Below are positions 1,834-39,383 of a DNA stretch of 64,000 nt, in pieces (position 1 is the first letter of the stretch; each line of letters starts with the position of its first letter). The DNA comes from a bacterium (GTDB lineage: Bacteria > Patescibacteriota > Minisyncoccia > UBA6257 > WO2-44-18), in NCBI GenBank assembly GCA_023244815.1, contig JAHFLQ010000002.1:6994-70993 (forward strand), written 5' to 3'. Made by a program: the position numbers and the translations under genes. The notes under the pieces are model-generated. The model was given only the letters and a program-made list of their open reading frames with translations, did no database searches and was not told where the DNA came from.

Positions 1834-1836
1834 AGT

Positions 1837-4385: not shown

Positions 4386-5106
4386 TAAAATTTGGCTTCT
4401 GAAATGTTGCTTCCGCGATTGCCCAATCTTCAGGAGTATCAATATCAACATTATATTTCGGATCGATCACGAGTGCCCGCACGTCATCGCCAAGCATGCC
4501 CGCGTCCTCGTCGTATTTAAAAAGGTTATCCGTTTTAAAGAGGTAAATCATGCCATTACTCGCGTAAGACGCTGGAAGATCCTGCCGCCGCATGATTCTT
4601 TTCCGGACTGGTTGACCATTGATGAGTGCCAATCTGTCTTCTGCGTCCTTGGTCATAGAACGGTAGGGATTATAATGCCCAGGAACAGGAGAAACTCCGA
4701 ACACTGAATCAGCCTCCGTTTTCGTAATGATCTCCACCGCTTCGCGTATGTGTTCTGGCTGCCGGAGCGGGCAGGTTGGAAAAAGCGTCATGACATAATC
4801 CGGAACGTATCCCTCATTGTCTTTAAGCCAGTTAATCGTATGGCGCAATACGGGAAGGTGCTGAGTGTCATCCGCGGCTAGCTCTTTGGGGCGCATAAAT
4901 GGGACCTCACAGCCGTATTTTTTTGCCACATCAGCAATGCGAGCGTCGTCGGTCGTTAAAATAATGCGGTCAAACACTCCCGATTTTTTAGCAGCTTCAA
5001 TAGAATAGGCGATGAGAGGCTGTCCTCCTAACAGTTTAATATTTTTTCCCGGAACGCCCTTGGATCCGCCGCGCGCAGTAATGATTCCTAAAATTTTTTT
5101 ATCCAT
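4378..5106 (-). CDS. CMP-sugar cytidylyltransferase, paralog 2
   Basis: Start MDKKILGIITARGGSKGVPGKNIK (ATG at 5106). Same family as 3669..4385 and in tandem with it. Confidence 0.75.
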   Translation of the reverse strand: MDKKILGIITARGGSKGVPGKNIKLLGGQPLIAYSIEAAKKSGVFDRIILTTDDARIADVAKKYGCEVPFMRPKELAADDTQHLPVLRHTINWLKDNEGYVPDYVMTLFPTCPLRQPEHIREAVEIITKTEADSVFGVSPVPGHYNPYRSMTKDAEDRLALINGQPVRKRIMRRQDLPASYASNGMIYLFKTDNLFKYDEDAGMLGDDVRALVIDPKYNVDIDTPEDWAIAEATFQKPNFNG

Positions 5107-5824
5107 GGCGTTGTTTTTTTGATAATAAAAATTCCGCAAATTCCCAATCAATTGGGGAATTAATGTCTATATTTTCTTCTTCTATCACATAGGGCAAAAT
5201 ACGGTCGCCGGAAACAGATTTTTTCTCCATCACTGTGGCATAGCGAGTCACATCTACCTGCCCATAGTGCGCGTAGGTTCTCGGAAGCTTCTGCCTTCCC
5301 CAACAGAACGCCTCCTTTTCTCCTGGAATAGTGATGACTGGATTCAGATAGCCGCTCTGGCTGATATGGAAGATTTTATATGGGGGCACTGGCGGCGTAG
5401 AAACCGTCCATACCGAATCGGCGCCGGGATTATTCGCGAGCATCTCAATGCCCTTCTCAATAGAAGAGAATTTCCTCAAAGGGTATGTCGGGCGTAAATG
5501 AACAATAAAGTCAGGCTTCCAGCCTTCATGCTTTTCCAGCCACTCTAGGGCATGTAAGAAAACTGGAAAATCTTTAGTGTCATCTTGCGCTATTTCCTTC
5601 GGTCGCATAAATGGCACTTCACACCCATGCTGGCGACCCACTTCCGCAATCTTCGGATCATCGGTAGTTAAAATGACACGGTCGAAATATTGCGCCGCTT
5701 TCGCGCTCTCGATGGTGTAGACCAGAAGGGGCCTGCCCAACAGCGGTTTAATATTTTTCCCCGGAACGCCCTTGGATCCGCCGCGCGCAGTGATCAGGCC
5801 TAGCACTTTGTAGTTCTTATACAT
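5099..5824 (-). CDS. CMP-sugar cytidylyltransferase, paralog 3
   Basis: Starts MYKNYKVLGLITARGGSKGVPGKNIKPL. Third tandem copy. It shares a near-identical nucleotide tract of about 46 nt with paralog 2 (5035-5080 versus 5750-5795). Confidence 0.75.
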   Translation of the reverse strand: MYKNYKVLGLITARGGSKGVPGKNIKPLLGRPLLVYTIESAKAAQYFDRVILTTDDPKIAEVGRQHGCEVPFMRPKEIAQDDTKDFPVFLHALEWLEKHEGWKPDFIVHLRPTYPLRKFSSIEKGIEMLANNPGADSVWTVSTPPVPPYKIFHISQSGYLNPVITIPGEKEAFCWGRQKLPRTYAHYGQVDVTRYATVMEKKSVSGDRILPYVIEEENIDINSPIDWEFAEFLLSKKQRHG

Positions 5825-5828
5825 AGAC

Positions 5829-7544
5829 TTAGAGCCTCTTATAATTAACGCCCTTGACCTTTTCTACTTCTGCCTTTTCATACAGTCCCCATGTGTCAAA
5901 CAAAAGGCAGGGCTTATTAGCTACCGAGAGCAGGTTGCGAATCTCCAAATCTTCAAAAGCCGGATTGTTGTTCATCACTATTACCGCGTCGGCGCCTTCA
6001 AATCCCTTTTTTAAATCCGAAACGTGTTTCACCTGCAGCGCCGTGACAGAGGAGCGTTTCACCGCCGGATCATACCCGTAAATATTCTTGGTTGCCTTTT
6101 TTAATTTCTGGACCAGAGGGATGGTGGTAGAGCCGCGCATATCGGAAGTCACCGGACGGCCCTTAAACGCAAATCCTAGGACTAGTAATTTAGGATTTTT
6201 TACAGCCGGATTGTTTTCTTTCAAGAAAGAAATGGTGGAATCGGCAACAAAATTTACCATAGTATCGCTGATGGTCCTGGAGTGCTTTATCAAAGAAGGG
6301 CCATCCTTTCTTTTAGCGCTATGGAGCAAAATAAACGGATCTTTTTCCAGACAGGCGCCGCCGACTCCGGGACTCGGCAACGGCACACTGCTTCTTTCAT
6401 AGCCACGGTTAGCCGCGGCAATCACCCGATGGGTATCAATGCCCAGCTGATTGCAAATCAGAGAAAGTTCGTTGGAAAACGCGAAATGCACGTCCCGGTA
6501 GGTATTGTTGATTAGTTTGACCATTTCCGCCTCTTCCAGCGAATCTACTAGAACAACGGAATGGGTCATGTGATTGAAAATGGAAGCGGCTAAATCAGTA
6601 CTGGACTTGTCAAAGCCACCGATTACCTGAGGAAGGGTGCGCAATTCTCGCAGGGCCTTGCCTTCGATAGTGCGCTCCGGAGCGAAGGCGACAAAAAAAT
6701 CCTTGCCCGCGCGCAATCCCGAGTATTTTTCTAAAGTAGGAATTACGAAACTCCGCGTTGTGCCCACTGGAACCGTGGACCGCAAAATCACCGCATCGCC
6801 GCTTTTCAAAACCCTTCCGATGCGAACAGAAGCGTTTTCCAAATATTCAAGCATTGGCTCCCTTTTTGTGTTGAGAGGCGTACCTACGGCTATGAAATAA
6901 ATATCGCAATTGTTTTCACTGCGAAAATCTTTGACCGGCTCGAAACTCTTACCCAAATTATCCTTCAGTATTTGTTGTATGCCTTCCTCAAAGAAATGTG
7001 CCTTCTTTCTCGCCAAAGATGCCATCACTTCATTGTTAGTATCAAAGCCGCGTACCTTAAAGCCTAGATCCGCTAACGTAAGCGCCAAAGTTAAACCGAC
7101 GTACCCCAAACCCAAAACTCCGATCTGTTTGAAGCGGGTGTCGCTTCTCTGCCAAAGGTCGTAAAAAGAAACTAGATCAAGAACTTTGCGATTTTGATCC
7201 ACTATAATAATTTTATTCAGCCGATTATCGCGCCATTTTTCCTTCCTGTTTTTCTCCGCTACCATAGACAGAATTTCCGTATTGGTTTTCACGCCCTCAA
7301 TAACAAAGGGGGTTTTGTTCATTATTTTCAAAATCGGGCTCTCTAAAGATACGCCGCGAGAAAGCGCGCGGCGGATATCTCCATCCGTAGCTACGCCCAT
7401 CAGCCTCTCGTCTTTACCAACAACCAAAACAATCCCCTGGGGAATCATAGTTATGCCCGGTTTGTTAGTTGTGAGCTTCCGAAGCGCCGCCCTAATGCTT
7501 TCCGTCGGCTTCACAAAAATTTTCGGTAAATGTTTATTGGCCAT
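5829..7544 (-). CDS. CBS-domain pair fused to a UDP-glucose/GDP-mannose 6-dehydrogenase-family nucleotide-sugar dehydrogenase
   Basis: 571 aa. The N-terminal ~130 aa are CBS-like. They are followed by the NAD fold GVLGLGYVGLTLA and the catalytic-cysteine motif GVGGACLEKD of the UDPGDH family. Confidence 0.7.
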   Translation of the reverse strand: MANKHLPKIFVKPTESIRAALRKLTTNKPGITMIPQGIVLVVGKDERLMGVATDGDIRRALSRGVSLESPILKIMNKTPFVIEGVKTNTEILSMVAEKNRKEKWRDNRLNKIIIVDQNRKVLDLVSFYDLWQRSDTRFKQIGVLGLGYVGLTLALTLADLGFKVRGFDTNNEVMASLARKKAHFFEEGIQQILKDNLGKSFEPVKDFRSENNCDIYFIAVGTPLNTKREPMLEYLENASVRIGRVLKSGDAVILRSTVPVGTTRSFVIPTLEKYSGLRAGKDFFVAFAPERTIEGKALRELRTLPQVIGGFDKSSTDLAASIFNHMTHSVVLVDSLEEAEMVKLINNTYRDVHFAFSNELSLICNQLGIDTHRVIAAANRGYERSSVPLPSPGVGGACLEKDPFILLHSAKRKDGPSLIKHSRTISDTMVNFVADSTISFLKENNPAVKNPKLLVLGFAFKGRPVTSDMRGSTTIPLVQKLKKATKNIYGYDPAVKRSSVTALQVKHVSDLKKGFEGADAVIVMNNNPAFEDLEIRNLLSVANKPCLLFDTWGLYEKAEVEKVKGVNYKRL

Positions 7545-7553
7545 GTTGTCTAT

Positions 7554-8510
7554 TTAATACCATGGTTGGAGCGCGTACCGTGACGCGTGATCGGATAATT
7601 TTTCTAACTCGCTATCATTCGGATAAACAAATTGAGGCAACCACAGAGAAGCAGCGGAACAAAAACCGCCGGTAAACATCAGTCGCTGTTTACTCTTGGC
7701 ATAGCCACCCATATGAATGCCGGCGGTATCACCAAAGATAACCGTGCCGGCCCTGCCCATCGCCACCTTGATGCCGTCGTGTTGGGCGAGACGCTTTATT
7801 GCATTTTCATTGATGTTAATGCTTCCGTGAGGCGGCTTTTGCGGAAAAAGATTCCCCCAGCGCCCGCCGGAATTCGATCTGGCAAAATAACTAAGCGGCC
7901 CGGCCTCTGCGTCCACGTCACTGAGATAAATGAAGATCTTACAAAGTTTTTTATCTTCCGGATCCCGATGCCAGCGCTGGGAAGAAATCGGCTCCGCGCT
8001 TCCCACCGGCAGAACCAGGTTAAGATTGTACATATAAAACTTGGAATACATATCCAGATATCCATTAGCAATGCCCACTACTTTCGGAGATAAAGTTAAT
8101 TTGATAAATGGGTTACTTAAATCCACAGTGTTCATTTTTTCCCAGAGATCGGCGATGTAGGTCTTTCCCTTCTCCCGCTGGTGCTTATTGTCAATTAATC
8201 CTTCGGCGAATTTTTGTAACTGCGGCAAAAGATTCTGGCCCGGAAAAAGCTCATCCAGATGAGTGATGGCTATTCCGTTTTCTTTTAATTCACCGACTAC
8301 TCTCTGCTGCGCAGTATCTAACGGTTTTTTATTTTCTTCATATAACTTCCTGGCTTTCCTGTTTACAATATTAAACCAAACTGGCCAGGTGCCCTGCAAA
8401 ATATAATAAGGCCGCAAAACCCGATAGAGTGGGCGCACGGATTTTTTATACTTCAAATACACCAAGTTCGGCCAAACCGTTTTAATTTTGCTGACAAGTT
8501 TTTTAAACAT
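7554..8510 (-). CDS. PhyH-like Fe(II)/2-oxoglutarate-dependent dioxygenase
   Basis: 318 aa. It has the WHRDPED (HxD) motif and a distal His (TAGIHMGG), as in the phytanoyl-CoA dioxygenase family. Confidence 0.45.
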   Translation of the reverse strand: MFKKLVSKIKTVWPNLVYLKYKKSVRPLYRVLRPYYILQGTWPVWFNIVNRKARKLYEENKKPLDTAQQRVVGELKENGIAITHLDELFPGQNLLPQLQKFAEGLIDNKHQREKGKTYIADLWEKMNTVDLSNPFIKLTLSPKVVGIANGYLDMYSKFYMYNLNLVLPVGSAEPISSQRWHRDPEDKKLCKIFIYLSDVDAEAGPLSYFARSNSGGRWGNLFPQKPPHGSININENAIKRLAQHDGIKVAMGRAGTVIFGDTAGIHMGGYAKSKQRLMFTGGFCSAASLWLPQFVYPNDSELEKLSDHASRYALQPWY

Positions 8511-9678
8511 TGTGAAAACTTTTTTGGCTATAAAGCCTTGCCTTGCTTAATATTTTCACTATCTTATCGCTGGTGCCAGGCTGGTAGTAGACGTTGGATT
8601 TCGGATATCGTCCATGCTGGAGCTGTTTTTTTATGGATTGGATAATTAAACTTTTGTCACACTTAACGTCAATTACACTGGGTCCCCTCAAACGGCCCTT
8701 CTGCCGTGTGCCGATATTCACCACTGGAACGCCGAAATAAGACGCCTCTTTAATACCCGAGGAAGAATTACCTACCAAGGCACTGGTTTTGCGTAAGAGG
8801 CCGATAAAGTCCTCCGGCAGAAGATCGGTTATGAATCGAATTTTGCCGTTTTTGATCTTGCCGTGTTCTCGGTACATCCGAATCGCTTTCGCGATCTCGT
8901 TGGTACCGGCATCGCTATTCGGCCAAAACCAGATCGCAGGAAAATTCAGTTCATCAACGGCCTGTAAAAGTTTCTCGGTTTTTACCCGATTGTCTTTTTC
9001 GGTGGTTACAGGATGATGTAGCACCATTAAAAATGGTTTCTGCAAGTCGATCTCCGAACCAGTGCCAGTTTTATTAACCACGCGGCCATCGTGTTTCAAG
9101 TCAACTCGCGCGGCGAATTCTACCTCCGGCGACCCGACATTAAAAACCGATCTGGGATTTTCGCCCATCTGAATAACTCGGCGGCGAGCGTCTTCATTGG
9201 TCACAAAATGAATGTGCGCCAGCTTGGTAATGGCGTGGCGAATGCTTTCATCAATCGTGCCGCTCACGTCGCCCCCTTCGATGTGGGCGATGGTTTTATT
9301 GAGATAGGCCGCCACCATCGCTATAGCTAGTTGCTCAAACCGATCACCGCGAATCACTACAATGTCGGGATCCAGTTTGTATAACGAATTGGCAAATTCT
9401 AGCGCTGTCAGACCGGCGGTTTTCGCCATTGCGATGTGACTGCCGCCATCCACCACATTAAAAAGTGTGTCACCAATGGTCAGGCCTGAGGTTTTAATGG
9501 CGGGCAAAAAACGCTCGCCGTATTTATCTAATAAAATGGAACCGCCGACCACCAACTGAAGATCGATCGCCGAATTTTTTTGCAATTTTTCCAGCAAAAT
9601 TTTTTGGCGCGCATAGTGAATGCGGCTGGTAATTGGGAAGCAAATAACACGTTTTTTCTTAGGTTTTGCCGTAGCCAT
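8503..9678 (-). CDS. UDP-N-acetylglucosamine 2-epimerase, hydrolysing NeuC type, copy 1
   Basis: 391 aa. It has the Epimerase_2 family motifs HIEGGDVSGTIDESIRHAITKL and GNSSSGIKEASYFGVPVVNIG. Confidence 0.7.
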   Translation of the reverse strand: MATAKPKKKRVICFPITSRIHYARQKILLEKLQKNSAIDLQLVVGGSILLDKYGERFLPAIKTSGLTIGDTLFNVVDGGSHIAMAKTAGLTALEFANSLYKLDPDIVVIRGDRFEQLAIAMVAAYLNKTIAHIEGGDVSGTIDESIRHAITKLAHIHFVTNEDARRRVIQMGENPRSVFNVGSPEVEFAARVDLKHDGRVVNKTGTGSEIDLQKPFLMVLHHPVTTEKDNRVKTEKLLQAVDELNFPAIWFWPNSDAGTNEIAKAIRMYREHGKIKNGKIRFITDLLPEDFIGLLRKTSALVGNSSSGIKEASYFGVPVVNIGTRQKGRLRGPSVIDVKCDKSLIIQSIKKQLQHGRYPKSNVYYQPGTSDKIVKILSKARLYSQKSFHNV

Positions 9679-9728
9679 ATAAACTGTATAAAAGTATAAC
9701 TTATTTTAAAGCTGTTTTGTAACCAATA

Positions 9729-9754
9729 AAAAGGGCCCATTTAATGGGCCCTTT
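9729..9754. terminator. Hairpin aaagggccca-tttaa-tgggcccttt at the 3' end of the minus-strand gene 9741..10730
   Basis: 10-bp stem with the stop codon in the loop. On the minus strand a T-rich tract follows (ttttattgg). Confidence 0.6.
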
Positions 9755-10730
9755 GGGGTTTGTTTTCCGCGGCGCTTCGGCGGCAGGCTTCAAGAACCCG
9801 CACCACTGCGAGGCCTTCCGCGTAACCGGTCTCGACCTTCCCGCCGCTTTGAACCGCGTAGAGAAATTCCTTCAGCTCTTCTTCAATCGGATCGGCTTTG
9901 GCCACTGCCAGCTCCTGCCGGTTGGTTTCAGTTTTTTGATAGACTTCTCTGCCAGGCCTTAACCAAATCCTGTTTCTATCTATGTAGATTGCTCCGTCGG
10001 TTCCGGAAATAAAGCAATACCTTTCGATCGGCACATTGTAGTTGCACTGCAGAAACACCGTTGCTCCGTTTTCCATGTTCAAGACCACCGAACTGGTGTC
10101 GGGTGACTCCGTCTCCCCGCTAATGTTCTGCAGTTGCGCGTAAACCGACTCTACTCTCCCGAAAAGGTAGTGGATGGTATCAATACAGTGACTGCCTACC
10201 ATCACCAGCGGGCCAAGATCGGTTCTGGCGGCACTGGCGCGCCATTCGTCTTTGCGCGTCGTGAAAACTTTGCTGCTGGAATAATTGAAGTTGACGTTAA
10301 CGATCTTTCCGATCAGTCCGTCATTCAACAATTCTTTCGCCTTGCGATAAACGCTTCCGCGCCTATGGCAATGGCCGACCATGAAAACTTTGCCGGCCCC
10401 TGCGTTGAACTTTCCGAGATGGACGGCTTGATCCAAACTGTTGACCATCGGCTTTTCCACAAAGATGTGGCGTGAGCCATCTTCCAGTAGGCGCCGCAGA
10501 AGGCCGAAGTGCCGGTCGTTCGGAGAAGCAATCACGAAGGCGCCGACCGAATCACAGTTAAGCACTTCGGACAGGCTCGCTATCCCGAGAGGTCCGTAAG
10601 TTTTAGCCTTTTCCGGTTCCGGATGGTAAAGATACTTTACCTCACAGCCTCCGATTTTTAGCAGGCGAGGGTGCAATTCTTTTTGCGCGAACTCGCCGTA
10701 CCCAGCAATGCAGATGCCGATCTTACGCAT
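9741..10730 (-). CDS. Gfo/Idh/MocA-family NAD(P)-dependent oxidoreductase
   Basis: 329 aa. N-terminal Rossmann MRKIGICIAGYGEFAQ, the EKP motif (HIFVEKPM), and a C-terminal alpha/beta domain. Its G+C is visibly higher than in the flanks. Confidence 0.65.
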   Translation of the reverse strand: MRKIGICIAGYGEFAQKELHPRLLKIGGCEVKYLYHPEPEKAKTYGPLGIASLSEVLNCDSVGAFVIASPNDRHFGLLRRLLEDGSRHIFVEKPMVNSLDQAVHLGKFNAGAGKVFMVGHCHRRGSVYRKAKELLNDGLIGKIVNVNFNYSSSKVFTTRKDEWRASAARTDLGPLVMVGSHCIDTIHYLFGRVESVYAQLQNISGETESPDTSSVVLNMENGATVFLQCNYNVPIERYCFISGTDGAIYIDRNRIWLRPGREVYQKTETNRQELAVAKADPIEEELKEFLYAVQSGGKVETGYAEGLAVVRVLEACRRSAAENKPQRAH

Positions 10731-12057
10731 CGCTACTCCCCTTACCTAGACAGTTATTGCAAGGACGGAAACAGTTCTTCTTGCCGGTTATGAACGCGAG
10801 GCGGAGCTTCCGCATCGTAAGTTCGTGTTTGGTATTGCCAAGCCAGATTTCGTGAAGCGATTCGGTATTGGCATTGCCAAGACAGAGCCAGCTAAGGTAG
10901 TCGTTTTCGCACGGATTCACTCTGCCATCCGCCCAGACATACATTCTGGTAAAAGGCGCGATGCAGACCCGGTCCGGAGCCACATTGCGCGGCGTGCCGT
11001 CCGGATTGTTGAGATAGGTACTGCCCGCCTGCTCGGCATTGGCCGTCTGCACGGAAAATTCGTCCACAAGCGGCGCCCACATTACGCGCGCGGCTTCCGG
11101 ATCCTGATCCTTAGGGCGGGAAATCACCATGTTGATGCGCGTTCGCACCGGCGAATTGGGGAATTCTTCTTTGCGAATCCGGGCAAACATTTCCACGTTG
11201 GCCTTGACCTTGTCAAAATCGGCGCCGATGCGGATCTCTTCAAACACTTTCTTATCGCCAGCATCCACCGAAAAAACAATGATCAGACAGGCATTCATGG
11301 ATAGCCATTCTCGGGCCATCTTCTCGGTCAAATAAGTCGCGTTCGTGTTGAATTTGAGATGAAGCACGCCTTTTTCGTGGCAATACCGAAGCATATCCGT
11401 AAAACGCGGATTGATCGTCGGTTCGCCTCGTCCGGCAAATACCATTCCCCGACATCCGTGTTCATAGGCTTCATCCACGACCTTAGTGAAGAGCTCCCAA
11501 GGCATCGTCTTAACCTTCTGCTCTTTGATGAGTTCCTTAAGGCGTTCGTCGGACTGGTAGCACATCGTGCATACCAGATTACAATTCGTCGCCGCTTCCA
11601 AGTGCAACAAGGGTATAAAACCAGAAGTATCCAGTTTATACGCGAACTTCTTAATCTTGTAACGATAGAGAAGATATTCAATGCCCTTCTCTTCCCTCCC
11701 GCTGTCGAAAAACCGCATAACTTGATTCAATTCGCTGATCGCAAGCTCAAAGCCGTTCGTATCAAAACCGTCTTCGTCTGTGGATGGGTTTTCCAGGTCG
11801 TAGGTTTTCAGGTGCGCCAGAATGTTGTAAAGGCTGTATTCTTCCGGCTGGACATTAGTCGCAAGCCTCTTTTCAATCGCCGCAATCAGCTCGTCCAACT
11901 TTTCCTTGTCGGTGCTCTGGATCAGCGGCTTGATGCGAAGCTTTGGCCGGCCTCTTTCGTTAATCAACTCCACCGCTTCTTTAGCCCGCTGCTCAAACCC
12001 GGCCATTGCCTCTTCGCGGCGCCGCCGAATGTCATCGGATCTTTCCGACATCGCCAA
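10723..12057 (-). CDS. Radical SAM enzyme with a SPASM/twitch-like C-terminal Cys cluster and a ~150-aa charged N-terminal extension
   Basis: 444 aa. CNLVCTMC is a CX3CX2C radical-SAM motif. The C-terminus has CIAPF...C...CLGNA...CFRPCNNC cysteine clusters. The region is G+C-rich. Confidence 0.65.
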   Translation of the reverse strand: MAMSERSDDIRRRREEAMAGFEQRAKEAVELINERGRPKLRIKPLIQSTDKEKLDELIAAIEKRLATNVQPEEYSLYNILAHLKTYDLENPSTDEDGFDTNGFELAISELNQVMRFFDSGREEKGIEYLLYRYKIKKFAYKLDTSGFIPLLHLEAATNCNLVCTMCYQSDERLKELIKEQKVKTMPWELFTKVVDEAYEHGCRGMVFAGRGEPTINPRFTDMLRYCHEKGVLHLKFNTNATYLTEKMAREWLSMNACLIIVFSVDAGDKKVFEEIRIGADFDKVKANVEMFARIRKEEFPNSPVRTRINMVISRPKDQDPEAARVMWAPLVDEFSVQTANAEQAGSTYLNNPDGTPRNVAPDRVCIAPFTRMYVWADGRVNPCENDYLSWLCLGNANTESLHEIWLGNTKHELTMRKLRLAFITGKKNCFRPCNNCLGKGSSDA

Positions 12058-12147
12058 CCTCCTGAATAAATTTCAAAGGACACAGATAAAACCCGCTTTA
12101 AAGCCGTAAAGTTACGGCCAAAGCGCCAGTTAGAGAGTATAAATAAA

Positions 12148-12174
12148 ATACCCCGAAGTCAATCTTCGGGGTAT
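12148..12174. terminator. Rho-independent terminator for the minus-strand gene 12182..13249
   Basis: ataccccgaag-tcaat-cttcggggtat is an 11-bp stem. On the minus strand it is followed by tttatttat. Confidence 0.65.
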
Positions 12175-12181
12175 TGAATTG

Positions 12182-13249
12182 TTAGCTAAGCAGTTTCGTC
12201 AGGACTTCTGTCATGATCCTGACCGCGGCACCGCGTTCCTTCGGCGCCGGGAAACAGGCTTTCTGGCGGGCGCGCATTGCGTTAAAACCTCCTGGTGCCA
12301 TCAAGTCCTGAATCGCCCGCGAGAGCTCAATGGAATCGCCCATCACCGGGCGGGAAATTCCGAACTCGCACGGAGGCCAGACGTCACTGCCGGTTTGCTC
12401 TTTCATCCTCTTCAGACCGGCTGGCGAGAAAAAATCGATGACCGGTTTGCGCAGGCAAGCCGCTTCGATACCCGCAGTGGAAACTGCGGCGACCATGAGG
12501 TCGCAAACCGCGATCATATCAAGGGACTTAAGGCCCATGGCCTTTAGATCCTGTGCGGGCATGAGCCGGGCGACAACACGCTCGCCTTCGTCTCCACTAA
12601 GGATATCCTGGTAGGCGGTCGGCGAGTTCTGGTCACCCGGATGGAGCATGAAGAAAATCTTCCACCGCCGCCAGTCCTCAAGCCGAGAGACTGCCTGCAT
12701 GACCGCGCTGAAATGCGCCCTATTAACCTCCAGGTCCTTGCCGGCCGTACAGTAGAGCAGCAAATCTTCAGCGCTCATGCTGAGCAATCTCCGCGTCTCC
12801 GCTGGCGATCCGGAAAAGAAGAATGGTTCTTCCAAAACCGGATTGCCGGACGCGACCACTTCCGCGTTGGGGAAAAGTCGCCGCGTCGCCTTCGCTTCCT
12901 CCTCGGACATCACGAAAACGAACCTGGCTTTCTCGCGGAGCGGCTCGAACCAGGCGCGGCTGGAAGTTCCGAAAGTGTCCGCGTAAAAACCGTAGGGTAC
13001 GCCCGCCACGATCGCTTCCTTGGCCGAAGCAATTTCTTCCTTAGCGAGATCGGACGAGCAAGACATGCCCAAAAATAAGCATTGACTGTTGCGGACGTCT
13101 ACCGAAACTTGTTCGGCAGAGCTGGCGAGCGGCTTTCCGTGGCCCAGATAAGCCGAAACGGTAACGCCCTTGGCCGACAGATCGGCCTTAACCAAATCCA
13201 GAGTCCGAGACGGAGCCAGATCGCGCGCGACCAGAGTCGCCTTTGCCAA
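12182..13249 (-). CDS. Hypothetical GT-B-like protein, possibly a divergent G+C-rich member of the TagF-like family found in this locus
   Basis: 355 aa. The C-terminal KSLDMIAVCDLMVAAVSTAGIEAACLRKPVIDFF resembles the LADLLYHSDVVVAVASTLAIDAATLGKPVVFIGFDG motif of the 450-aa paralogs. Codon usage is G+C-rich. Confidence 0.3.
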   Translation of the reverse strand: MAKATLVARDLAPSRTLDLVKADLSAKGVTVSAYLGHGKPLASSAEQVSVDVRNSQCLFLGMSCSSDLAKEEIASAKEAIVAGVPYGFYADTFGTSSRAWFEPLREKARFVFVMSEEEAKATRRLFPNAEVVASGNPVLEEPFFFSGSPAETRRLLSMSAEDLLLYCTAGKDLEVNRAHFSAVMQAVSRLEDWRRWKIFFMLHPGDQNSPTAYQDILSGDEGERVVARLMPAQDLKAMGLKSLDMIAVCDLMVAAVSTAGIEAACLRKPVIDFFSPAGLKRMKEQTGSDVWPPCEFGISRPVMGDSIELSRAIQDLMAPGGFNAMRARQKACFPAPKERGAAVRIMTEVLTKLLS

Positions 13250-13327
13250 GTACCACCTCCAAAAAAAGAAAAAGAAGCTGAAAACGAACTGCTGCTATCC
13301 TAACACGCTCACGATAAAAGTCAAATT

Positions 13328-14038
13328 TTAACTTTTCACCATAAAATATTTTCCGTACTGCGCATCGCGTTCAATTTTATAAGGCTTGCCGGCAAAATAT
13401 TCGTCAATCGCTTTTTTCGCACCGGGACAAACAATGGCTTCATTTCTATTATCATACTCATCAAAAAGCACCACTCCGCCCTTCGCGACTTTCGAGAAAA
13501 GTTTTTCCAGGCAAGTTTTGTAGCCAGAGTAAAGATTAATGTCCAGATGAAGGAACGCGATCGGACCCATCTGACCAGCGGTTTTGGGCAGGGTATCTTC
13601 AACAAAGCCCTTTACTAATTTCACACGCTTCAAAATGTCCTCATCTATTCCTGCCCGGCGCAACACGTCAAAAACCAGATTGTCGCCAAGAAAATTCCAC
13701 TCGCCCGCCTTGCGCTCTCGCGGACTCTGATCTTCGGGTTTCGGATCGGGATAGCCCTCAAACGAATCAAAGCCCCAGAGGTTTTCTGGTCGTTTATAAT
13801 GATGCATCAGCATCGCCAGCATTTGAAAGGATTTAGCTTTCCCTACGCCGCATTCAACAATATCGCCGGATACTCTGGCAACTTTTTCCAGCATACGCTG
13901 AAAATAAAAAAGTCGGCCGGCCAGTCCCTGGGTCAGATGGAGGTCAAACTGCCGCGCGTACGCATTAGAACGCGCGCGCAATGCGTTAATTCCTAACTTT
14001 AAAAATAATTTGTTAATAAATTCCATATATGCCCTCAT
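13328..14038 (-). CDS. TylF/MycF-type (macrocin-O-methyltransferase family) SAM-dependent sugar O-methyltransferase
   Basis: Motifs GDIVECGVGKAKS, FLHLDINLY and GGVVLFDEY. The start was moved to MRAYMEF to avoid overlapping the neighbouring gene. Confidence 0.6.
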   Translation of the reverse strand: MRAYMEFINKLFLKLGINALRARSNAYARQFDLHLTQGLAGRLFYFQRMLEKVARVSGDIVECGVGKAKSFQMLAMLMHHYKRPENLWGFDSFEGYPDPKPEDQSPRERKAGEWNFLGDNLVFDVLRRAGIDEDILKRVKLVKGFVEDTLPKTAGQMGPIAFLHLDINLYSGYKTCLEKLFSKVAKGGVVLFDEYDNRNEAIVCPGAKKAIDEYFAGKPYKIERDAQYGKYFMVKS

Positions 14039-14054
14039 TTTATCGCATCCGTTG

Positions 14055-15407
14055 CTATTGCCACAATAAGATATGCTCGGCAATCCTCTGCCCAGCCTTC
14101 CCATTCAATAGTCCGCATTGCTCGCGGACTAATCGCTTCCGGCCTTCGCGGTCATGTTCGGGATGCGTGAGATATTCATTTATTGCAGCGGCCAGCTCTT
14201 CTTTGCTTTTCGGCATACGGATGCCGCCGCTTTTCAAGGCTTTTTGATAATGTTCCGTCTTATAAAAAAATGTCGGCGATTTAGACATCAGCTCTTTTTC
14301 CTTTACCTCAAAATTAATATTAATTGCCGGCTTGTCGAAGATCGCCGCCTCCACGCTCATACTAGAGGCATAGCAGATGAATAGATGGGCGTTGGCTAAA
14401 GTATCGGTCAAGCTTTTGATATCATCGAAGCTCATGTCCCAATTCACGCCCCGTACGCGCGAAAACCGGATGCCGGGCATGGCATAGCGCAGCCAGGGAC
14501 GCTTTGCCAATTCTCGCTCGTCAACAAAATCATTAGGCTGGAAACGCACAAAAAGCTGTGCGTCTCGGCCCTGTCTCTCAGTAATTATTTTGTTCAGCAT
14601 ATCAACAATGTCCCAATCGGAATTACTGAATGCTTTTCCCATTGGGGCGTACACAATGATTTTCTTCGTTGGATCTAATTTATTTTTTTCGCAGAAAGTT
14701 TCCCGGGAAACCGCTTTGTAATTAACGTGCCAATCATATTGGGGAACGCCTGAGACAAAAATATCTTTCTCTTTCATGTCCGCATAGGTCATCGCCTCTT
14801 GTTTCACAATATCATTAAACACCACCAGCGAATCCGGCAGGAGGCGCAGACTATGCCGCGTAGTTAGCTTGTCCCAAGAATTTATGAAGCCGATGGCGGG
14901 AATGCTTCTGCGCCTGGCCTCTCGCAAAAGACTAATTTCGTGATCATCAAAAAGGTGGGCTAAAAAAACCGCGGCTGGATTATATTTTTCGAAAAACTCC
15001 GTAAAAACATTACTGCGTATCAAGCGATAATCTAGCGCCCGCACTAATTTTCTTACCCAACGTCTTGCCAAAATGTGGTTAGCGATCAGCGAAAACCAGT
15101 AGTGGAGATAGCGGCGATTTTCTTCGAGGGCCATTTTCCGGCGTAAGTCAGTAGTCGCGGTGCGTAAAAGCAAGAAGCCCAAAGAGGAAAAAAGTGCATC
15201 CACCCCCCTGGGGGTAGTTAGAGGCGATACTTCATAAATTACCCGAGGATGAGAAAATTCTTTCTGGTAATATTCGGCTCTTTCCGCAGTGTCCACAAAA
15301 AAAACAATTCTCGTATCGCCGTGAGCGATGAGGGTTTTATAAATATCGGTGCGCAAAATGTTTTTTGCTTCCGCCCCCTGAAAAATTGTTATAAAAATAG
15401 TTTTCAT
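14055..15407 (-). CDS. TagF-like (CDP-glycerol glycerophosphotransferase-like, PF04464-like) GT-B transferase, paralog 1
   Basis: Start MKTIFITIF matches paralog 2. Shared motifs are GFINSWDKLT, IIVYAP and HLFICYASSMSVEAAIFDKPAININF. Family assignment is by motif only. Confidence 0.5.
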   Translation of the reverse strand: MKTIFITIFQGAEAKNILRTDIYKTLIAHGDTRIVFFVDTAERAEYYQKEFSHPRVIYEVSPLTTPRGVDALFSSLGFLLLRTATTDLRRKMALEENRRYLHYWFSLIANHILARRWVRKLVRALDYRLIRSNVFTEFFEKYNPAAVFLAHLFDDHEISLLREARRRSIPAIGFINSWDKLTTRHSLRLLPDSLVVFNDIVKQEAMTYADMKEKDIFVSGVPQYDWHVNYKAVSRETFCEKNKLDPTKKIIVYAPMGKAFSNSDWDIVDMLNKIITERQGRDAQLFVRFQPNDFVDERELAKRPWLRYAMPGIRFSRVRGVNWDMSFDDIKSLTDTLANAHLFICYASSMSVEAAIFDKPAININFEVKEKELMSKSPTFFYKTEHYQKALKSGGIRMPKSKEELAAAINEYLTHPEHDREGRKRLVREQCGLLNGKAGQRIAEHILLWQ

Positions 15408-15512
15408 CCCATTAGAAGGGCCTCCAACTTCGCTACCTTTATTATTTTTATTAGTTTCCATAAATTATGCGATCTCATTAATACGACCATACCCCTCATC
15501 CTCTAACGGGAT

Positions 15513-16868
15513 TCATTTTATGAATTGGATAAGAAAATCAGCGATTCGTTCTCCTGATCTGCCGTCCAACTTCCACGCTTGCAGTTTTAAAAACTGGGCG
15601 CGGTTTCCCCGATCTAAAGAAGTATTTTTCAAATAATTATTTATATGATAAACCAATTCTTCTTTGTTTCTCGTAAACGGCGCCCAGCGGGTAAAAAGCA
15701 TTTTCTTGGTATGATCCCAGTCTAAAAATCGGACCGCGCTTTTCAAATACGCATTATCTTTCTCTCCGTCGAAGGCAATGCCGATGATCGGTTTATCGAA
15801 AGCGCAGGCGTCGATATTCAGGCTGGAGGTATAAGCAATCACCAGATCGCTATAATATAGCGTATCAGCAAGATGGACCATCGCCTCACGGTCTAATTCC
15901 TGATCTCGATATGCCCTATCTTGAAACCTATGGGAAGGATGCTCAATCCGAAAATGATCATCAGGCACAAAATCTCCCATAGGTATCGTGTCGTTGGGCG
16001 GAATACGAACCAGAAATTGAAGATCTCTTGATATCTCGCCTTTTAGGCGGACGTCTTTCAAAATTTTCATAATTTTCCAATCGGTATCAATAAATCGGCC
16101 GCCCCAAGGAGAAAACAGGATCAGCGGTTTTTTCGGGTCAAAATTAATGTGCCGGAAAAAATCTTCCCGGCTGGATCGGGGCTCGTTCAGATAGTAATCC
16201 AGCTGCGGCATGCCGGCGACAAAGATATTTTCTTTTTTCATGCCGCCATATTGTATCGCTTCATCACGGATAATTTCATTATTTACTATCAGCTTGTCCG
16301 GCTTTATCCGAAACAAACCCTTATTGGTAATGTTGTCCCAGGAGCGGACCATGCCAACGGCGCAGATACCGCGATGCTTCGCTTCAGCCAAAAAATGAAG
16401 GTCGTCTACATGGTATACATCCGGCCCAAACACCAGGTCGGGCTGATAGCGATTAAAGTATTCAGCAAATTTACTTTTGGAAATCGTCAGCTGATCCAAA
16501 AATCGGATTAAATTCTTCACCGGCAACAACCATCCTATCCAAGAAAGGGCGTGAGAAAAAAGGTAGGCAAAGAGATTCTTATTGCGTAAAAAAATCTCTT
16601 TGCGATGAATCGCCAGGGTTTGAGTTCGAATCAGCGACCTTCCCAAATAACCAAAGACAACGTCTTGTTTAGAAAATCTTTCATTTTTAATTGGCTGAAT
16701 GATAACGTTTTCTTTTTTAAAATGCTTTTCAAAGTATTCTTTTTTGTAATCCGGGCAAAAAATCACTATTCGGAGATTTGGATTTCCGGCTAATTTCTTG
16801 AATACGTCGGTAAAAAGGATATTGCGCGTTATGAAAGGATTGAGACTGGTGATGAAGATAGTTTTCAT
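15513..16868 (-). CDS. TagF-like GT-B transferase, paralog 2
   Basis: 451 aa. MKTIFITSLNPF...GMVRSWDNITNKG...LILFSPWG...LVIAYTSSLNIDACAFDKPIIGIAFDG...LDGRSGERIADFL. Confidence 0.5.
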   Translation of the reverse strand: MKTIFITSLNPFITRNILFTDVFKKLAGNPNLRIVIFCPDYKKEYFEKHFKKENVIIQPIKNERFSKQDVVFGYLGRSLIRTQTLAIHRKEIFLRNKNLFAYLFSHALSWIGWLLPVKNLIRFLDQLTISKSKFAEYFNRYQPDLVFGPDVYHVDDLHFLAEAKHRGICAVGMVRSWDNITNKGLFRIKPDKLIVNNEIIRDEAIQYGGMKKENIFVAGMPQLDYYLNEPRSSREDFFRHINFDPKKPLILFSPWGGRFIDTDWKIMKILKDVRLKGEISRDLQFLVRIPPNDTIPMGDFVPDDHFRIEHPSHRFQDRAYRDQELDREAMVHLADTLYYSDLVIAYTSSLNIDACAFDKPIIGIAFDGEKDNAYLKSAVRFLDWDHTKKMLFTRWAPFTRNKEELVYHINNYLKNTSLDRGNRAQFLKLQAWKLDGRSGERIADFLIQFIK

Positions 16869-16915
16869 TTTACTTAATAATACAACTTATATGAGCTTAT
16901 CGGAGTTTCTGAAAG

Positions 16916-16946
16916 AAAAAATCCCTCCGATGTTCATCGGAGGGAT
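16916..16946. terminator. Rho-independent terminator for the minus-strand transaldolase gene
   Basis: atccctccgat-gttc-atcggagggat is an 11-13-bp stem. On the minus strand it is followed by TTTTTCTTTC. The core is near-identical to the hairpin at 691-728. Confidence 0.7.
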
Positions 16947-16953
16947 TTATGGA

Positions 16954-17787
16954 TTATTTGGGCTTCTTGAGCCAGTCTGCGTACTCTGTGAGGAACTGGT
17001 TGAGGACCTCATCGGTCTTGAAATGCTGAACCATCTTCGGAAAATCGTCGAAAAACTTGTAAGGCACGGTGACGATGTGCGCGCCGGCCAGCATGGCGTC
17101 GCGCACATCCCAGATCGTCCGGATCGAACCGGCAATGATCTCGCAGTTGAACTTCTCGCGGTCAAAGATCTCGCGGGTGCGCCGGACGACTGAAGCGGGA
17201 TTGCAGTCGTCGTTGGTCAAGATTCCATCGCGCAGAAGCTGTAAAGATTTTAAGCGGTGCTTTTCTAGAAAGTCCCACTGCGTCGGGTTTGACTCACACT
17301 TGCCTTGTTTAAGCTCGATTGCTTCTGGCGAAGCATCCCGAATCCTGCCCCAAAACAAGCTGGCGTAACGAGCGCCGGACTTGGCCGCCCACACTGCCTG
17401 GGAAACGGTCATGCAGGCAGTGCAGTTTACGCTGACATCGCGCCGAGCCAGATCTCGAATTACTGCGAGCTCAGGCCAGCCGATCTGAACCTTCACGCTC
17501 AAGGCGGGGTAGCGGAAAGTTGCCTTGAAATGGGCGGCCTGATTCATGATCTCAACGGGGTCTTTGGAAAAAACCTCCACGCTAAGATGCTTGTAGTGAT
17601 GCTGATCAAAAACATCTGTAACTTTGTTTTGATTGAGAATCTCGATGATCTTTCCAATGTGTTCCTCAAACCTCCCCTTCGGCTCCTTCGCGAGCAGGGA
17701 CGGGTTAGTAGTCACTCCATCGACAAACCCGAGATCCATTGCCGCCTTGATCTCATCCAGATTCGCCGTGTCCACGAAAATTTTCAT
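16954..17787 (-). CDS. Transaldolase / fructose-6-phosphate-aldolase-family protein
   Basis: 277 aa. The N-terminus MKIFVDTANLDEIKAAMDLGFVDGVTTNPSL is diagnostic of the transaldolase/FSA family. G+C is higher than in the flanks. Confidence 0.7.
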   Translation of the reverse strand: MKIFVDTANLDEIKAAMDLGFVDGVTTNPSLLAKEPKGRFEEHIGKIIEILNQNKVTDVFDQHHYKHLSVEVFSKDPVEIMNQAAHFKATFRYPALSVKVQIGWPELAVIRDLARRDVSVNCTACMTVSQAVWAAKSGARYASLFWGRIRDASPEAIELKQGKCESNPTQWDFLEKHRLKSLQLLRDGILTNDDCNPASVVRRTREIFDREKFNCEIIAGSIRTIWDVRDAMLAGAHIVTVPYKFFDDFPKMVQHFKTDEVLNQFLTEYADWLKKPK

Positions 17788-17860
17788 GCCAACCTCCTTA
17801 AAAAGAACATCCGACTAACACCAACAATGTAAAAGAATGAGGAACAAACGTCAACCTTAT

Positions 17861-17886
17861 AAAAAGAGCGCTGGTTAAGCGCTCTT
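17861..17886. terminator. Hairpin terminator with the gmhA stop codon in the loop
   Basis: aagagcgc-tggttaa-gcgctctt has A-runs before it and T-runs after it, read on the minus strand. Confidence 0.5.
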
Positions 17887-18522
17887 AATTTCTGAAATGA
17901 GTTCCTTGAGGCGGAAAGCGATCAGGTGAGCGAGCACCACGTGGAACGATTCCACCAGCGGCGTACCGAGATCTTTTTCCGCGACCGGTACCACCAGCGC
18001 GACATCCACCAACTTTGCCATCGGACCGCCATCAAAACCGGAAAGTCCAATAGTGATCCCGCCGCGATCCTTGATGTACTGAAGTCCCTTCAAGAGATTC
18101 TGCGACCACTGGCCGCCAAAATCCGATCCGCTGCCACCATGGACGCTGATACCGATACCTACCGCCTTGCGCTTGGCAAGAAAACCGTCTAACCAGAAAG
18201 TGTCCAGCCAAGACGTGAAGTAGTCTTCTTTTGGGCGATCGTTCACGATCGCGCTGATGAGCGGAATGTTGTCCCAGGGAGTCAGCGCGAAAATACTGCG
18301 CTTGCCCGGCACATCATTGACGGTTTTGGCCAAATCAGCGGCCAGATGCGAAGCGGTAGATGCCGACCCGCCATTCCCAAGAATGTAGACAGGCGCACCG
18401 TTCAGCCAGGCAGTGAAAAGAACATTGACCGCCTTTTCAATCTGCTCGCCTTGCTTTTCCAGTTCCTCAATAACACCATGGGCGCTTTGAAAGAACCGGG
18501 CAACATATTCGCGAGTATGCAC
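17875..18522 (-). CDS. gmhA: SIS-domain sedoheptulose-7-phosphate isomerase (phosphoheptose isomerase)
   Basis: 215 aa. It has GNGGSASTASHLAADL and a second SIS half (GISVHGGSG), as in GmhA. Confidence 0.7.
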   Translation of the reverse strand: MHTREYVARFFQSAHGVIEELEKQGEQIEKAVNVLFTAWLNGAPVYILGNGGSASTASHLAADLAKTVNDVPGKRSIFALTPWDNIPLISAIVNDRPKEDYFTSWLDTFWLDGFLAKRKAVGIGISVHGGSGSDFGGQWSQNLLKGLQYIKDRGGITIGLSGFDGGPMAKLVDVALVVPVAEKDLGTPLVESFHVVLAHLIAFRLKELISEIKSA

Positions 18523-18620
18523 GGGGCCTCTCTTTCCGTATTAATGAACATCCTCACCTTAATAAGAAACTCGCCAGTGGTCAATCTTGTTTCGTCGAAT
18601 CCTTGTGGTAGGCTTGAGAA

Positions 18621-19286: not shown

Positions 19287-19316
19287 AAATGTCCCGAAGT
19301 ACTTCGGGACATTTTT
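19285..19316. terminator. Bidirectional Rho-independent terminator between convergent genes
   Basis: aaaaatgtcccgaa-gtac-ttcgggacattttt is a perfect stem with an A-tract upstream and a T-tract downstream. Confidence 0.8.
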
Positions 19317-19318
19317 TG

Positions 19319-33116: not shown

Positions 33117-33139
33117 AAACCCGGTGCTGAACCGGGTTT
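33117..33139. terminator. Bidirectional hairpin terminator
   Basis: aaacccggt-gctga-accgggttt is a 9-bp stem. On the minus strand it is followed by tttttaatt. Confidence 0.6.
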
Positions 33140-34202: not shown

Positions 34203-34274
34203 AAAACCTCCACCATTAGAACCCTCAACGAGCCATCTAGGTTATAGCAGGCCGTGAAATAACGGTCAATTAAA

Positions 34275-34297
34275 AACCCCGATGCAGGATCGGGGTT
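34275..34297. terminator. Hairpin terminator for the minus-strand gene 34307..35092
   Basis: aaccccgat-gcagg-atcggggtt. On the minus strand it is followed by ttttaatt. Confidence 0.6.
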
Positions 34298-34306
34298 CGT
34301 TACTGT

Positions 34307-35092: not shown

Positions 35093-35095
35093 TTG

Positions 35096-35824: not shown

Positions 35825-35892
35825 TGGTTTTCCTTTCATCATTGCCCACATAATGAAACACAAAATCGATCAAAAAGGTTATACTGATACCA

Positions 35893-39380: not shown

Positions 39381-39383
39381 TTA

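Follow-up and report, generated by a model that had tools for sequence, protein, structure and literature searches.

A conserved radical-SAM and oxidoreductase gene pair in a surface-glycan locus of a Patescibacteria genome

The stretch of DNA analysed here, which we call the window, consists of 64,000 nucleotides (nt) of contig JAHFLQ010000002.1 (positions 6,994 to 70,993 of the forward strand; assembly GCA_023244815.1) from a bacterium of the Patescibacteriota lineage WO2-44-18. Its positions 9741-13249 carry three minus-strand genes that encode, in the direction of transcription, a protein of 355 amino acids (aa) with putative kinship to TagF, a radical S-adenosylmethionine (SAM) enzyme, hereafter rSAM, and an oxidoreductase of the Gfo/Idh/MocA family, hereafter Gfo. 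The major features of this region are summarized in Table 1. A first-pass annotation, made by a model from the letters and a list of open reading frames (ORFs), had named all three genes; the ORFs are present on the minus strand and the identities are right. It had also joined them into a single horizontally acquired cassette. Our analysis indicates that the conserved unit is the rSAM-Gfo pair, that this pair is part of a large uncharacterised family recurring beside nonulosonic-acid genes in bacteria and archaea, and that it probably reshapes a sugar for the cell-surface glycan of this Patescibacteria bacterium.

The rSAM gene starts at the ATG at 12051, with AGGAGG 6 nt upstream, and not at the TTG at 12057 given in the ORF list; the database protein P0001 (442 aa) is 100% identical to rSAM read from this ATG. 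The Gfo start lies within the end of the rSAM gene, the two genes sharing 8 nt (ATGCGTAA, 10730-10723, read from the sequence). Upstream, a hairpin with a U-rich tail begins 6 nt past the TAA of the 355-aa gene and has a folding energy (dG) of -18.8 kcal/mol (z -6.2; 0 of 200 shuffles equally stable); it is predicted to be a textbook intrinsic terminator, and the rSAM Shine-Dalgarno sequence lies about 90 nt beyond it. In the downstream hairpin (dG -20.1, z -3.0) the TAA that ends the Gfo gene makes up the loop; this hairpin may serve to terminate or attenuate transcription at the close of a two-gene unit. Because the upstream hairpin lies between the 355-aa and rSAM genes, the two hairpins enclose the rSAM-Gfo pair only, which would form a translationally coupled two-gene unit between them, with the 355-aa gene as a separate upstream cistron. 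Both hairpins had been taken as the bounds of the cassette. They are real, but the upstream one is no outer boundary and sits inside the three genes, and the 355-aa gene behind it is missing from many loci that carry the pair.

Table 1. Coordinates and base composition of the genes and transcription signals around the rSAM-Gfo pair (positions are those of the window; GC3, G+C at third codon positions)
Feature	Coordinates	Strand	G+C	GC3	z	Basis or remark
355-aa GT-B-fold protein, putative truncated divergent TagF-like relative	12182..13249	-	0.583 (highest in window)	0.680	3.3	hhalign, AlphaFold2 (AF2), Foldseek
Intrinsic-terminator-like hairpin, 12-bp stem, 5-nt loop, tail UUUAUUUAU	12147..12175	-				Folding against shuffles
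Shine-Dalgarno AGGAGG of rSAM gene	12058..12063	-				6 nt upstream of ATG at 12051
Radical-SAM (rSAM) enzyme, 442 aa	10723..12051	-	0.516	0.629	2.4	Pfam Radical_SAM and SPASM; composition for 10723-12057
Gfo/Idh/MocA NAD(P)-dependent oxidoreductase, 329 aa	9741..10730	-	0.529	0.618	2.2	Three Pfam GFO domains above cutoff
Palindromic hairpin, 11-bp stem, 3-nt loop, tail UUAUUGGUU	9730..9754	-				Folding against shuffles
NeuC-type hydrolysing UDP-GlcNAc 2-epimerase	8503..9678	-				TIGR03568 363 bits against cutoff 235.9; next gene downstream
CBS-domain nucleoside diphosphate (NDP)-sugar dehydrogenase, 571 aa, UDP-ManNAc-dehydrogenase-like	5829..7544	-				Same conserved operon
PseF-like cytidylyltransferase (CT3)	5099-5824	-				Pfam; NCBIfam PseF, two operon copies at 146 and 172 bits against 205.7
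PseF-like cytidylyltransferase (CT3)	3669-4451	-				Pfam; PseF score under 205.7 cutoff
PGDH-like D-2-hydroxyacid dehydrogenase (2HADH)	2713-3672	-				PGDH 220 bits against cutoff 454
Other 50 genes of the window				mean 0.491, sd 0.057

rSAM belongs to the radical SAM superfamily, with 62.4 bits for PF04055 (Radical_SAM) against a gathering threshold of 29.5. In an alignment of 45 sequences of the rSAM family (A1), the CX3CX2C motif (C157/C161/C164) and a GGE-type motif (G209-E210-P211) are invariant. The C-terminal part scores 38.2 bits with the Pfam SPASM model (threshold 21.5) but lacks the seven-cysteine, two-cluster SPASM pattern: only four downstream cysteines are conserved in A1 (C363, C381, C431 and C434, C390 and C427 being variable), and their spacing, C-x17-C ... 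C-x2-C, is in register with the twitch cysteines of BtrN in a profile alignment. Because these four are the only conserved downstream cysteines, rSAM is predicted to be of the twitch type, with a single auxiliary cluster as in BtrN, and not a seven-cysteine SPASM protein.

When a profile built from A1 was used against the PDB, BtrN came first (E 1.5e-24, 90 bits) with both the core and the twitch domain aligned, followed near 1e-10 by GDGT-MAS, anSME, DesII and SuiB, and then by BlsE (E 1.8e-6). A single-sequence phmmer comparison of rSAM with BtrN gave E 1e-3. Multicystatin (4lzi), the top single-sequence match in the PDB (E 5.8e-6), had no significant stretch and was discarded as spurious, the profile search having given BtrN. 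The AF2 model of rSAM is of high confidence (predicted local distance difference test, pLDDT, 93.3; predicted template modelling score, pTM, 0.93), and a Foldseek search with it retrieved SuiB, BtrN, DesII and anSME, with a template modelling (TM) score normalised to BtrN of 0.70-0.75. Residues 1 to about 145 form an N-terminal domain that is ordered and mostly helical in the model, with no disordered tail; this extension is 37% charged, compared with 26% for the remainder of the protein. In A1 it is kept in homologues at least about 45% identical to rSAM and is shorter or absent in more distant ones. The CX3CX2C motif, a C-terminal SPASM/twitch-like domain, a charged N-terminal extension of about 150 aa and kinship to BtrN had all been proposed in the first-pass annotation, and each of them is borne out. 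The BtrN-like subfamily to which rSAM belongs is uncharacterised; its N-terminal domain is new, its oxidoreductase partner is fixed, and its setting is one of nonulosonic-acid-type glycan loci. Within its twitch-coding part, at 10822-10886, the gene carries an imperfect 26-nt direct repeat whose copies lie 39 nt apart, and at this point the window protein has five extra residues (TKHEL) that none of the 44 aligned homologues shares.

On rSAM, every NCBIfam model stays below its cutoff. The best, NF033640 (N_Twi_rSAM, 'twitch domain-containing radical SAM protein'), scores 90.8 bits against 170 and covers residues 135-313 only, short of membership; the DesII equivalog model scores 26.8 bits against 450, the anSME model 32 bits against 441, and the models for maturases of peptides that are made on the ribosome and modified after translation (RiPPs) are all far under their cutoffs. 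A housekeeping role such as that of MiaB or RimO is not indicated. A C-methylase, one of the options offered before, is unsupported, as the Pfam scan found no B12-binding or other methyltransferase domain in rSAM.

The partner belongs to the Gfo/Idh/MocA family by three Pfam domains (PF01408, 54.9 bits against 24; PF02894, 66.4 against 22.9; PF22725, 88.9 against 27) and carries the EKP motif (FVEKPMV). Its best PDB match is 3db2, a putative NADPH-dependent oxidoreductase, and no NCBIfam equivalog reaches its cutoff on it (UDP-GlcNAc 3-dehydrogenase, the best, 83 bits against 450; IolG, 76 against 355). The pairing itself is conserved. A scan of GTDB representative genomes found at least 524 stretches that encode rSAM relatives, and neighbourhoods were taken from the best 80 loci. 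Gfo adjoins rSAM, in either gene order, in 13 of the 15 reference-genome loci that score at least 288 bits with the subfamily profile, and in none of the loci among these 80 that score less. It stands directly after rSAM in a Harrisonbacteria metagenome-assembled genome (MAG; locus L003, rSAM 73% identical), in the Patescibacteria MAG loci L006 (rSAM 47% identical) and L007 (51%), and, at lower identity, in L008 (37%) and on the P0045 contig (33%).

The wider rSAM family is a large one, with 7,813 clusters (50% identity) at E <= 1e-30. Some members are fused to CTP_transf_3 (P0142, P0070), to a D-2-hydroxyacid dehydrogenase, 2-Hacid_dh (P0151, P0210), or to an FkbM methyltransferase (P0150). 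Others join two or more rSAM-twitch units in tandem and are up to 1,444 aa long (P0162, P0168, P0199, P0234, P0236 and P0246).

The pair lies within a conserved glycan super-operon of about 19 kb, in a genome that resembles those of Parcubacteria/Paceibacterota. The NeuC-type gene next to it is its syntenic partner in L003 and in two further related loci, L091 and L092. Farther downstream in the operon are the NDP-sugar dehydrogenase, both CT3 genes, the 2HADH gene and an EamA transporter gene, and the CT3 and 2HADH proteins are of the same domain families that are fused to rSAM members elsewhere. Neither a 318-aa protein (7554-8510) nor a 365-aa protein (736-1833) has a Pfam or NCBIfam match; in L091 and L092 the gene of the former again separates NeuC from the dehydrogenase, and L003 does not have it. 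A second NeuC gene and a NeuB gene occur at 28595-30861 (NeuB 29758-30861). Across the Gfo-coupled loci, CT3 or NeuB is found in 12 of 18, and these are, after Gfo, the commonest recurrent neighbours; in other phyla, too, no gene accompanies the family more often than NeuB and CT3. In the family at large, NeuB, CT3 or Epimerase_2 accompanies rSAM in about 28 of the 80 loci, including those of Pelagibacter, Nitrosopumilus, Woesearchaeota and Omnitrophota. The pair has TagF-like genes directly beside it in the window, L003, L006, L007/L012, L011, L091 and L092. Unbiased clustering of the neighbouring ORFs added only an ABC exporter and a GT4 glycosyltransferase as recurrent neighbours, which is uninformative on the chemistry. 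With the nonulosonic acid pathways (NeuC/NeuB/NeuA and PseB-I/PseF) the window shares its NeuC-type epimerase, the second NeuC with NeuB, and four PseF-like cytidylyltransferases. We know of no described nonulosonic acid pathway that includes a radical-SAM enzyme.

Among characterised enzymes, BtrN, the 2-deoxy-scyllo-inosamine dehydrogenase of the butirosin pathway (PDB 4M7T/4M7S), is the closest in architecture, sharing with rSAM the core and a one-cluster C-terminal twitch domain in which the four cysteines align. Its substrate is a carbohydrate-like secondary alcohol, as is proposed below for rSAM. However, BtrN has about 250 aa, whereas rSAM has 442 aa with the additional N-terminal domain and a longer core, and the two are only about 14-20% identical. 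The genetic context differs as well: BtrN is encoded with a 2-deoxy-scyllo-inosose (DOI) synthase and an aminotransferase and is not known to have a Gfo/Idh/MocA neighbour, whereas rSAM has neither a DOI synthase (DOIS) nor an adjoining aminotransferase. The two are not orthologous, as judged from the remote homology, the extra N-terminal domain and the lack of a dehydroquinate synthase (DHQS)/DOIS-like gene in all 86 family loci inspected for one. DesII (TDP-4-amino-4,6-dideoxy-D-glucose deaminase/dehydrogenase) and BlsE (cytosylglucuronate decarboxylase), whose substrates are nucleotide-linked sugars and which remove a hydrogen from a carbinol carbon, are detectable relatives at much lower similarity than BtrN. 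To our knowledge, radical-SAM sugar-tailoring enzymes (BtrN, DesII, AprD4, BlsE) are known almost only from antibiotic pathways. The closest functional analogy, by description and not by sequence, is AprD4/AprD3, in which a radical-SAM diol dehydratase and an NADPH-dependent reductase together bring about the C3'-deoxygenation of paromamine (PMC5461906). The two-enzyme logic is the same, a keto-sugar made by the radical-SAM enzyme being reduced by an NAD(P)H-dependent partner, but AprD4/AprD3 serves aminoglycoside antibiotic biosynthesis and the rSAM-Gfo pair lies in a surface-glycan locus.

We hold with moderate confidence that rSAM and Gfo act in succession, the former making a sugar ketone and the latter reducing it with NAD(P)H, so that a sugar destined for CMP activation is, on balance, epimerised or deoxygenated. 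The reading favoured here is thus one that the first-pass annotation put forward as an alternative, that of a radical sugar epimerase or dehydratase. The [4Fe-4S] cluster of rSAM would cleave SAM to give a 5'-deoxyadenosyl radical, which would take a hydrogen from a hydroxyl-bearing carbon of the sugar, and the single four-cysteine auxiliary cluster would accept an electron, leaving a keto-sugar. This ketone could come directly from a two-electron oxidation, as in BtrN, or follow the loss of the neighbouring hydroxyl, as in the diol dehydratase AprD4. Gfo would then reduce it with NAD(P)H, for a net irreversible epimerisation or deoxygenation. The ketone-forming hydrogen abstraction is proposed because of the twitch architecture and the relationship to BtrN. 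Beyond CX3CX2C and the four auxiliary cysteines, A1 contains no conserved cysteine that could act as a hydrogen-atom donor, which argues against a one-enzyme, cysteine-dependent epimerase and fits a separate reductase. The substrate would most likely be a nonulosonic-acid-type sugar, or a hexosamine precursor, en route to CMP activation; that it is headed there is suggested by the CT3 and 2HADH fusions and by the NeuB/CT3 neighbourhoods. The PseF-like cytidylyltransferases of the operon would activate the product, and TagF-like/BFO_1060-like transferases, of which the 355-aa protein would be a short, separately transcribed member, would attach it to a surface glycan. We infer the direction and order of the redox steps, the type of net reaction and the substrate.

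Several observations count against this proposal. The NeuB and CT3 counts are raw co-occurrences, with no background frequency for glycan loci. The only NeuB of the window is 18 kb from the pair, L003 has no NeuB within 17 kb, and the Gfo-coupled loci L016 and L021 have no obvious glycan genes nearby. The literature on radical SAM enzymes together with nonulosonic, pseudaminic or legionaminic acid or NeuB yielded no characterised homologue. The reactions of twitch/SPASM enzymes are varied and, at the identity that rSAM shows to BtrN, chemistry is not reliably read from the fold. Gfo could act first, as an oxidase, and the N-terminal domain of about 145 aa is not accounted for by the proposed scheme. 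The only lead in the literature is an unannotated radical-SAM ORF (ORF 13-c) in some Legionella lipopolysaccharide loci.

If the ketone-and-reduction scheme is true, it would open a way to rare epimeric or deoxy acidic sugars by radical chemistry that needs no oxygen, and would help to explain the surface-glycan diversity of host-dependent bacteria of the Candidate Phyla Radiation (CPR) and of the hypervariable regions of SAR11. The finding places a BtrN-like enzyme with a fixed oxidoreductase in surface-glycan loci and, recurrently, beside nonulosonic-acid genes in microbes that are among the most abundant and the hardest to cultivate (Patescibacteria, Pelagibacter, Nitrosopumilus and Woesearchaeota), and supplies a concrete enzyme pair for testing. 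Family members exist in cultivated Pelagibacter strains: nBUS_33 has a Gfo-coupled copy (locus L014), and HIMB1493 has a more distant one (locus L051) with no Gfo beside it. More tentatively, and with less confidence than we place in the scheme itself, the pair and the wider family may carry out an undescribed radical modification of nonulosonic sugars or their CMP forms, for example a deoxygenation or stereoinversion in the C7-C9 side chain, with the N-terminal domain as a new module that binds the substrate or docks the partner. Surface sugars of new classes would then be expected in CPR bacteria, SAR11, Thaumarchaeota, Omnitrophota and DPANN archaea.

The base composition of 9741-13249 had been part of the case for a horizontally acquired module. 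The raised G+C and the preference for G/C-ending codons, noted by eye, are confirmed by a sliding-window analysis: with a G+C of 0.537 the stretch is the maximum among windows of its size in the 64 kb (mean 0.460, sd 0.022; 0.08% reach 0.537), and its genes have GC3 values of 0.62-0.68 compared with about 0.49 elsewhere. The flanking genes, given as 40-45% G+C, measure 45-47%. The G+C-normalised tetranucleotide deviation of the stretch falls in the 6.6% tail and its codon-usage distance has a z of about 1, neither of them extreme. Similar GC3 values are found in four other genes of the window (16954-17787, 0.673; 17875-18522, 0.606; 19319-20299, 0.609; 34307-35092, 0.618). The rSAM gene is also the GC3 maximum in the related loci L091 (0.67), L092 (0.52), L003 (0.56), L011 (0.55) and L006 (0.64), while in L008, whose host is of high G+C, the pair has GC3 values of 0.49 and 0.40, below the 0.6-0.7 of its neighbours. 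The rSAM-Gfo pair holds about 46-53% G+C irrespective of its host.

L091 and L092, whose rSAM proteins are about 63% identical to that of the window, are syntenic with its positions 736-20299, about 19 kb that extend across both G+C boundaries. The shared order runs from a GHMP kinase through an NTP-transferase, a SIS protein, a transaldolase-like protein, two TagF-like proteins and a methyltransferase to the 355-aa protein, rSAM and Gfo, and continues with NeuC, the 318-aa protein, the dehydrogenase, two CT3 proteins, 2HADH and EamA; in L092 a methyltransferase stands in place of the second CT3. With synteny extending past the boundaries, and with GC3 highest in the rSAM gene in five related genomes, the G+C excess appears old and tied to the gene. 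The window contains no tRNA, no Rfam element or riboswitch, and no integrase or transposase among its annotated neighbours. A recently acquired genomic island was therefore rejected, as L091 and L092 have the genes in the corresponding position and share their G+C pattern, and no mobility signatures were found, and the discrete horizontally acquired module of the first-pass annotation does not survive the synteny and the shared G+C excess of the rSAM gene. The G+C elevation is an old, gene-linked feature common to syntenic relatives and not a sign of a recent three-gene insertion. For annotation more generally, a local G+C peak may be an old gene-tied trait within a conserved operon and need not mark a recent island.

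The sole repeat of note is an exact 16-nt direct repeat, GGCCTTAACCAAATCC, at 9955-9970 and 13184-13199. One copy is set in from its end of the G+C-rich stretch by about 215 nt and the other by about 50 nt. Both fall within coding regions, but the reading frame differs, giving R-I-W-L-R-P in Gfo and L-D-L-V-K-A in the 355-aa gene. By chance, about 0.004 such pairs would be expected in 5.5 kb; the repeat could be a coincidence or a relic of recombination.

ClpB places the window organism in Patescibacteria. It is 81% identical to that of a Parcubacteria MAG and 76% to that of Paceibacterota. It is 82% identical to that of the genome to which L006 is assigned by inference, yet the L006 rSAM and Gfo are only 47% and 46% identical to those of the window. 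In Harrisonbacteria, ClpB is 73% identical, yet the L003 operon proteins are 57-78% identical. This disagreement between ClpB and the operon suggests that the whole operon may have been exchanged earlier among Patescibacteria.

The same neighbourhood leaves room for other substrates and reactions. An unlikely but not negligible alternative is that the pair acts on an ordinary NDP-hexosamine or uronic acid, such as UDP-ManNAc or UDP-ManNAcA supplied by the neighbouring NeuC-like epimerase and the CBS-domain dehydrogenase, to produce a rare epimeric, deoxy or decarboxylated sugar that is polymerised by TagF-like proteins and is unrelated to nonulosonic acids. This would account for the Epimerase_2 and NDP-sugar dehydrogenase genes immediately downstream in the window, L003, L091 and L092, for an NDP-sugar dehydrogenase in 6 of the 18 Gfo-coupled loci, for the detectable relationship to BlsE, which acts on a uronate, and for UDP-GlcNAc 3-dehydrogenase being the best NCBIfam match of Gfo, though far under cutoff. 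The epimerase, however, exceeds the NeuC cutoff by a wide margin (Table 1) and is thus of the hydrolysing type that frees ManNAc; the fusions with CT3 and the two PseF-like CT3 genes suggest an ulosonic acid activated with CMP and not a UDP-sugar; and outside the CPR the pair stands beside NeuB and CT3, not Epimerase_2. Far less probable is a role of rSAM in maturing peptides or proteins, as an enzyme of the anSME, sactisynthase or SPASM RiPP type with an N-terminal domain for peptide recognition. SuiB, which has an N-terminal peptide-binding domain, is the top Foldseek match by E-value, anSME and CteB also appear, and there are many weak NCBIfam matches to peptide maturases. All of these NCBIfam matches are far under their cutoffs, though, and in the profile search BtrN outscores every peptide maturase by 14 orders of magnitude; rSAM has four conserved auxiliary cysteines and not the seven of SPASM, its N-terminal domain is almost all helical and not a winged-helix RiPP recognition element, and the neighbourhood is one of sugar metabolism, with a Gfo partner and no conserved small precursor ORF.

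The first-pass annotation had raised another substrate class, reading the three genes as a horizontally acquired cassette for BtrN/DOIS-type (amino)cyclitol chemistry together with a DHQS-like cyclase at 33138-34202. BtrN is indeed the closest solved relative of rSAM, the Gfo/Idh/MocA family includes inositol dehydrogenases (Gfo itself matching IolG weakly), the cyclase scores 394.6 bits against a cutoff of 400 as 'AroB-related sugar phosphate cyclase', and the stretch is the G+C maximum of the window. Yet a homologue of the cyclase occurs in 0 of 86 family loci (1.1 Mb), and the window copy lies 21 kb from the pair with HpcH-like and short-chain dehydrogenase neighbours of its own. No aminotransferase adjoins the pair in the window, the terminator sets the 355-aa gene apart, and all three genes are syntenic in L091 and L092 with a common G+C excess. 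We consider this explanation improbable, and the link to DOIS unsupported. A rival that concerns only the base composition deserves more weight, though we still find it doubtful: gene-specific constraint or selection on codon choice, mRNA structure or expression could have raised the G+C without any horizontal transfer. It would fit an rSAM gene that is the GC3 maximum in five loci with backgrounds of 0.40-0.47, and the ordinary tetranucleotide and codon-usage distances. It fits less well with L008, where the pair falls below its high-G+C neighbours and so keeps its own composition and follows no host-specific optimum, and with the conflict between ClpB and the operon in the comparison with the genome inferred for L006.

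The 355-aa protein has no sequence match in Pfam, NCBIfam or the PDB. Its family comprises 29 members of about 350 aa each, and its AF2 model (pLDDT 95.6) has a GT-B fold whose top Foldseek matches are UDP-GlcNAc 2-epimerases (TM about 0.6, 12-16% identity). Profile-profile comparison with hhalign, by contrast, aligns the family with the TagF-like proteins of the window over 301 columns (97.2% probability, E 3.8e-11) and not with NeuC-like epimerases (probability 0.5%, E 0.11, from a weak profile, A4, of 3 sequences). The individual Pfam matches are divided, with 5 of 28 family members giving weak PF04464 and 8 of 28 weak Epimerase_2 matches. The family has in common with TagF-like/BFO_1060-like GT-B transferases (PF04464, NF046086) a C-terminal S-S/T-x-x-x-E-A-A-x-x-x-K-P-x-I motif, but the 355-aa protein is without the first ~100 residues of the TagF-like proteins of the window, has no direct Pfam match and has 2-epimerases as its structural neighbours. 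An assignment as a 2-epimerase (PF02350) was set aside in favour of the TagF-like one, with a residual possibility owing to the shallow epimerase profile. A truncated, divergent TagF-like homologue, outside formal Pfam membership, is thus the assignment supported by these comparisons, in agreement with the original label of 'divergent TagF-like'. Its gene stands upstream of rSAM in L091 and L092; neither L003 nor any of the 86 broader family loci has it.

The glycan locus as a whole exceeds 45 kb and contains many methyltransferase genes, which is unusually large for the small genomes of Patescibacteria. It encodes five or six full-length TagF-like/BFO_1060-like paralogues, among them those at 14055-16868, 30905-32281, 35893-37236 and 38031-40775, and its four PseF-like cytidylyltransferases include, besides the two in Table 1, one at 40772-41536. 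The genes at 16954-20299 encode a transaldolase/FSA-like protein, a SIS isomerase, a GHMP kinase and, on the plus strand, an NTP-transferase. The set is reminiscent of a GDP-glycero-manno-heptose pathway and recurs in synteny in L091 and L092; its three minus-strand members have GC3 values of 0.61-0.67. Large B12-binding or other radical-SAM genes recur near the pair in related Patescibacteria loci (L006:499-2610, L007:6786-8864, L091:2304-3845), and the one in L006 stands beside genes for serine hydroxymethyltransferase and FolD, a hint that the same glycan may undergo radical C-methylation. At 33138-35863 the sugar-phosphate cyclase lies beside an HpcH/HpaI-like aldolase (GC3 0.62) and a short-chain dehydrogenase, and these may form a separate carbocyclic or branched-sugar module. 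A 1275-aa protein encoded at 48630-52457 has the highest G+C at second codon positions in the window (0.513) and only a weak match to a peptidoglycan-binding domain; it is a candidate acceptor of the glycan, as a putative surface protein of repetitive or low-complexity type.

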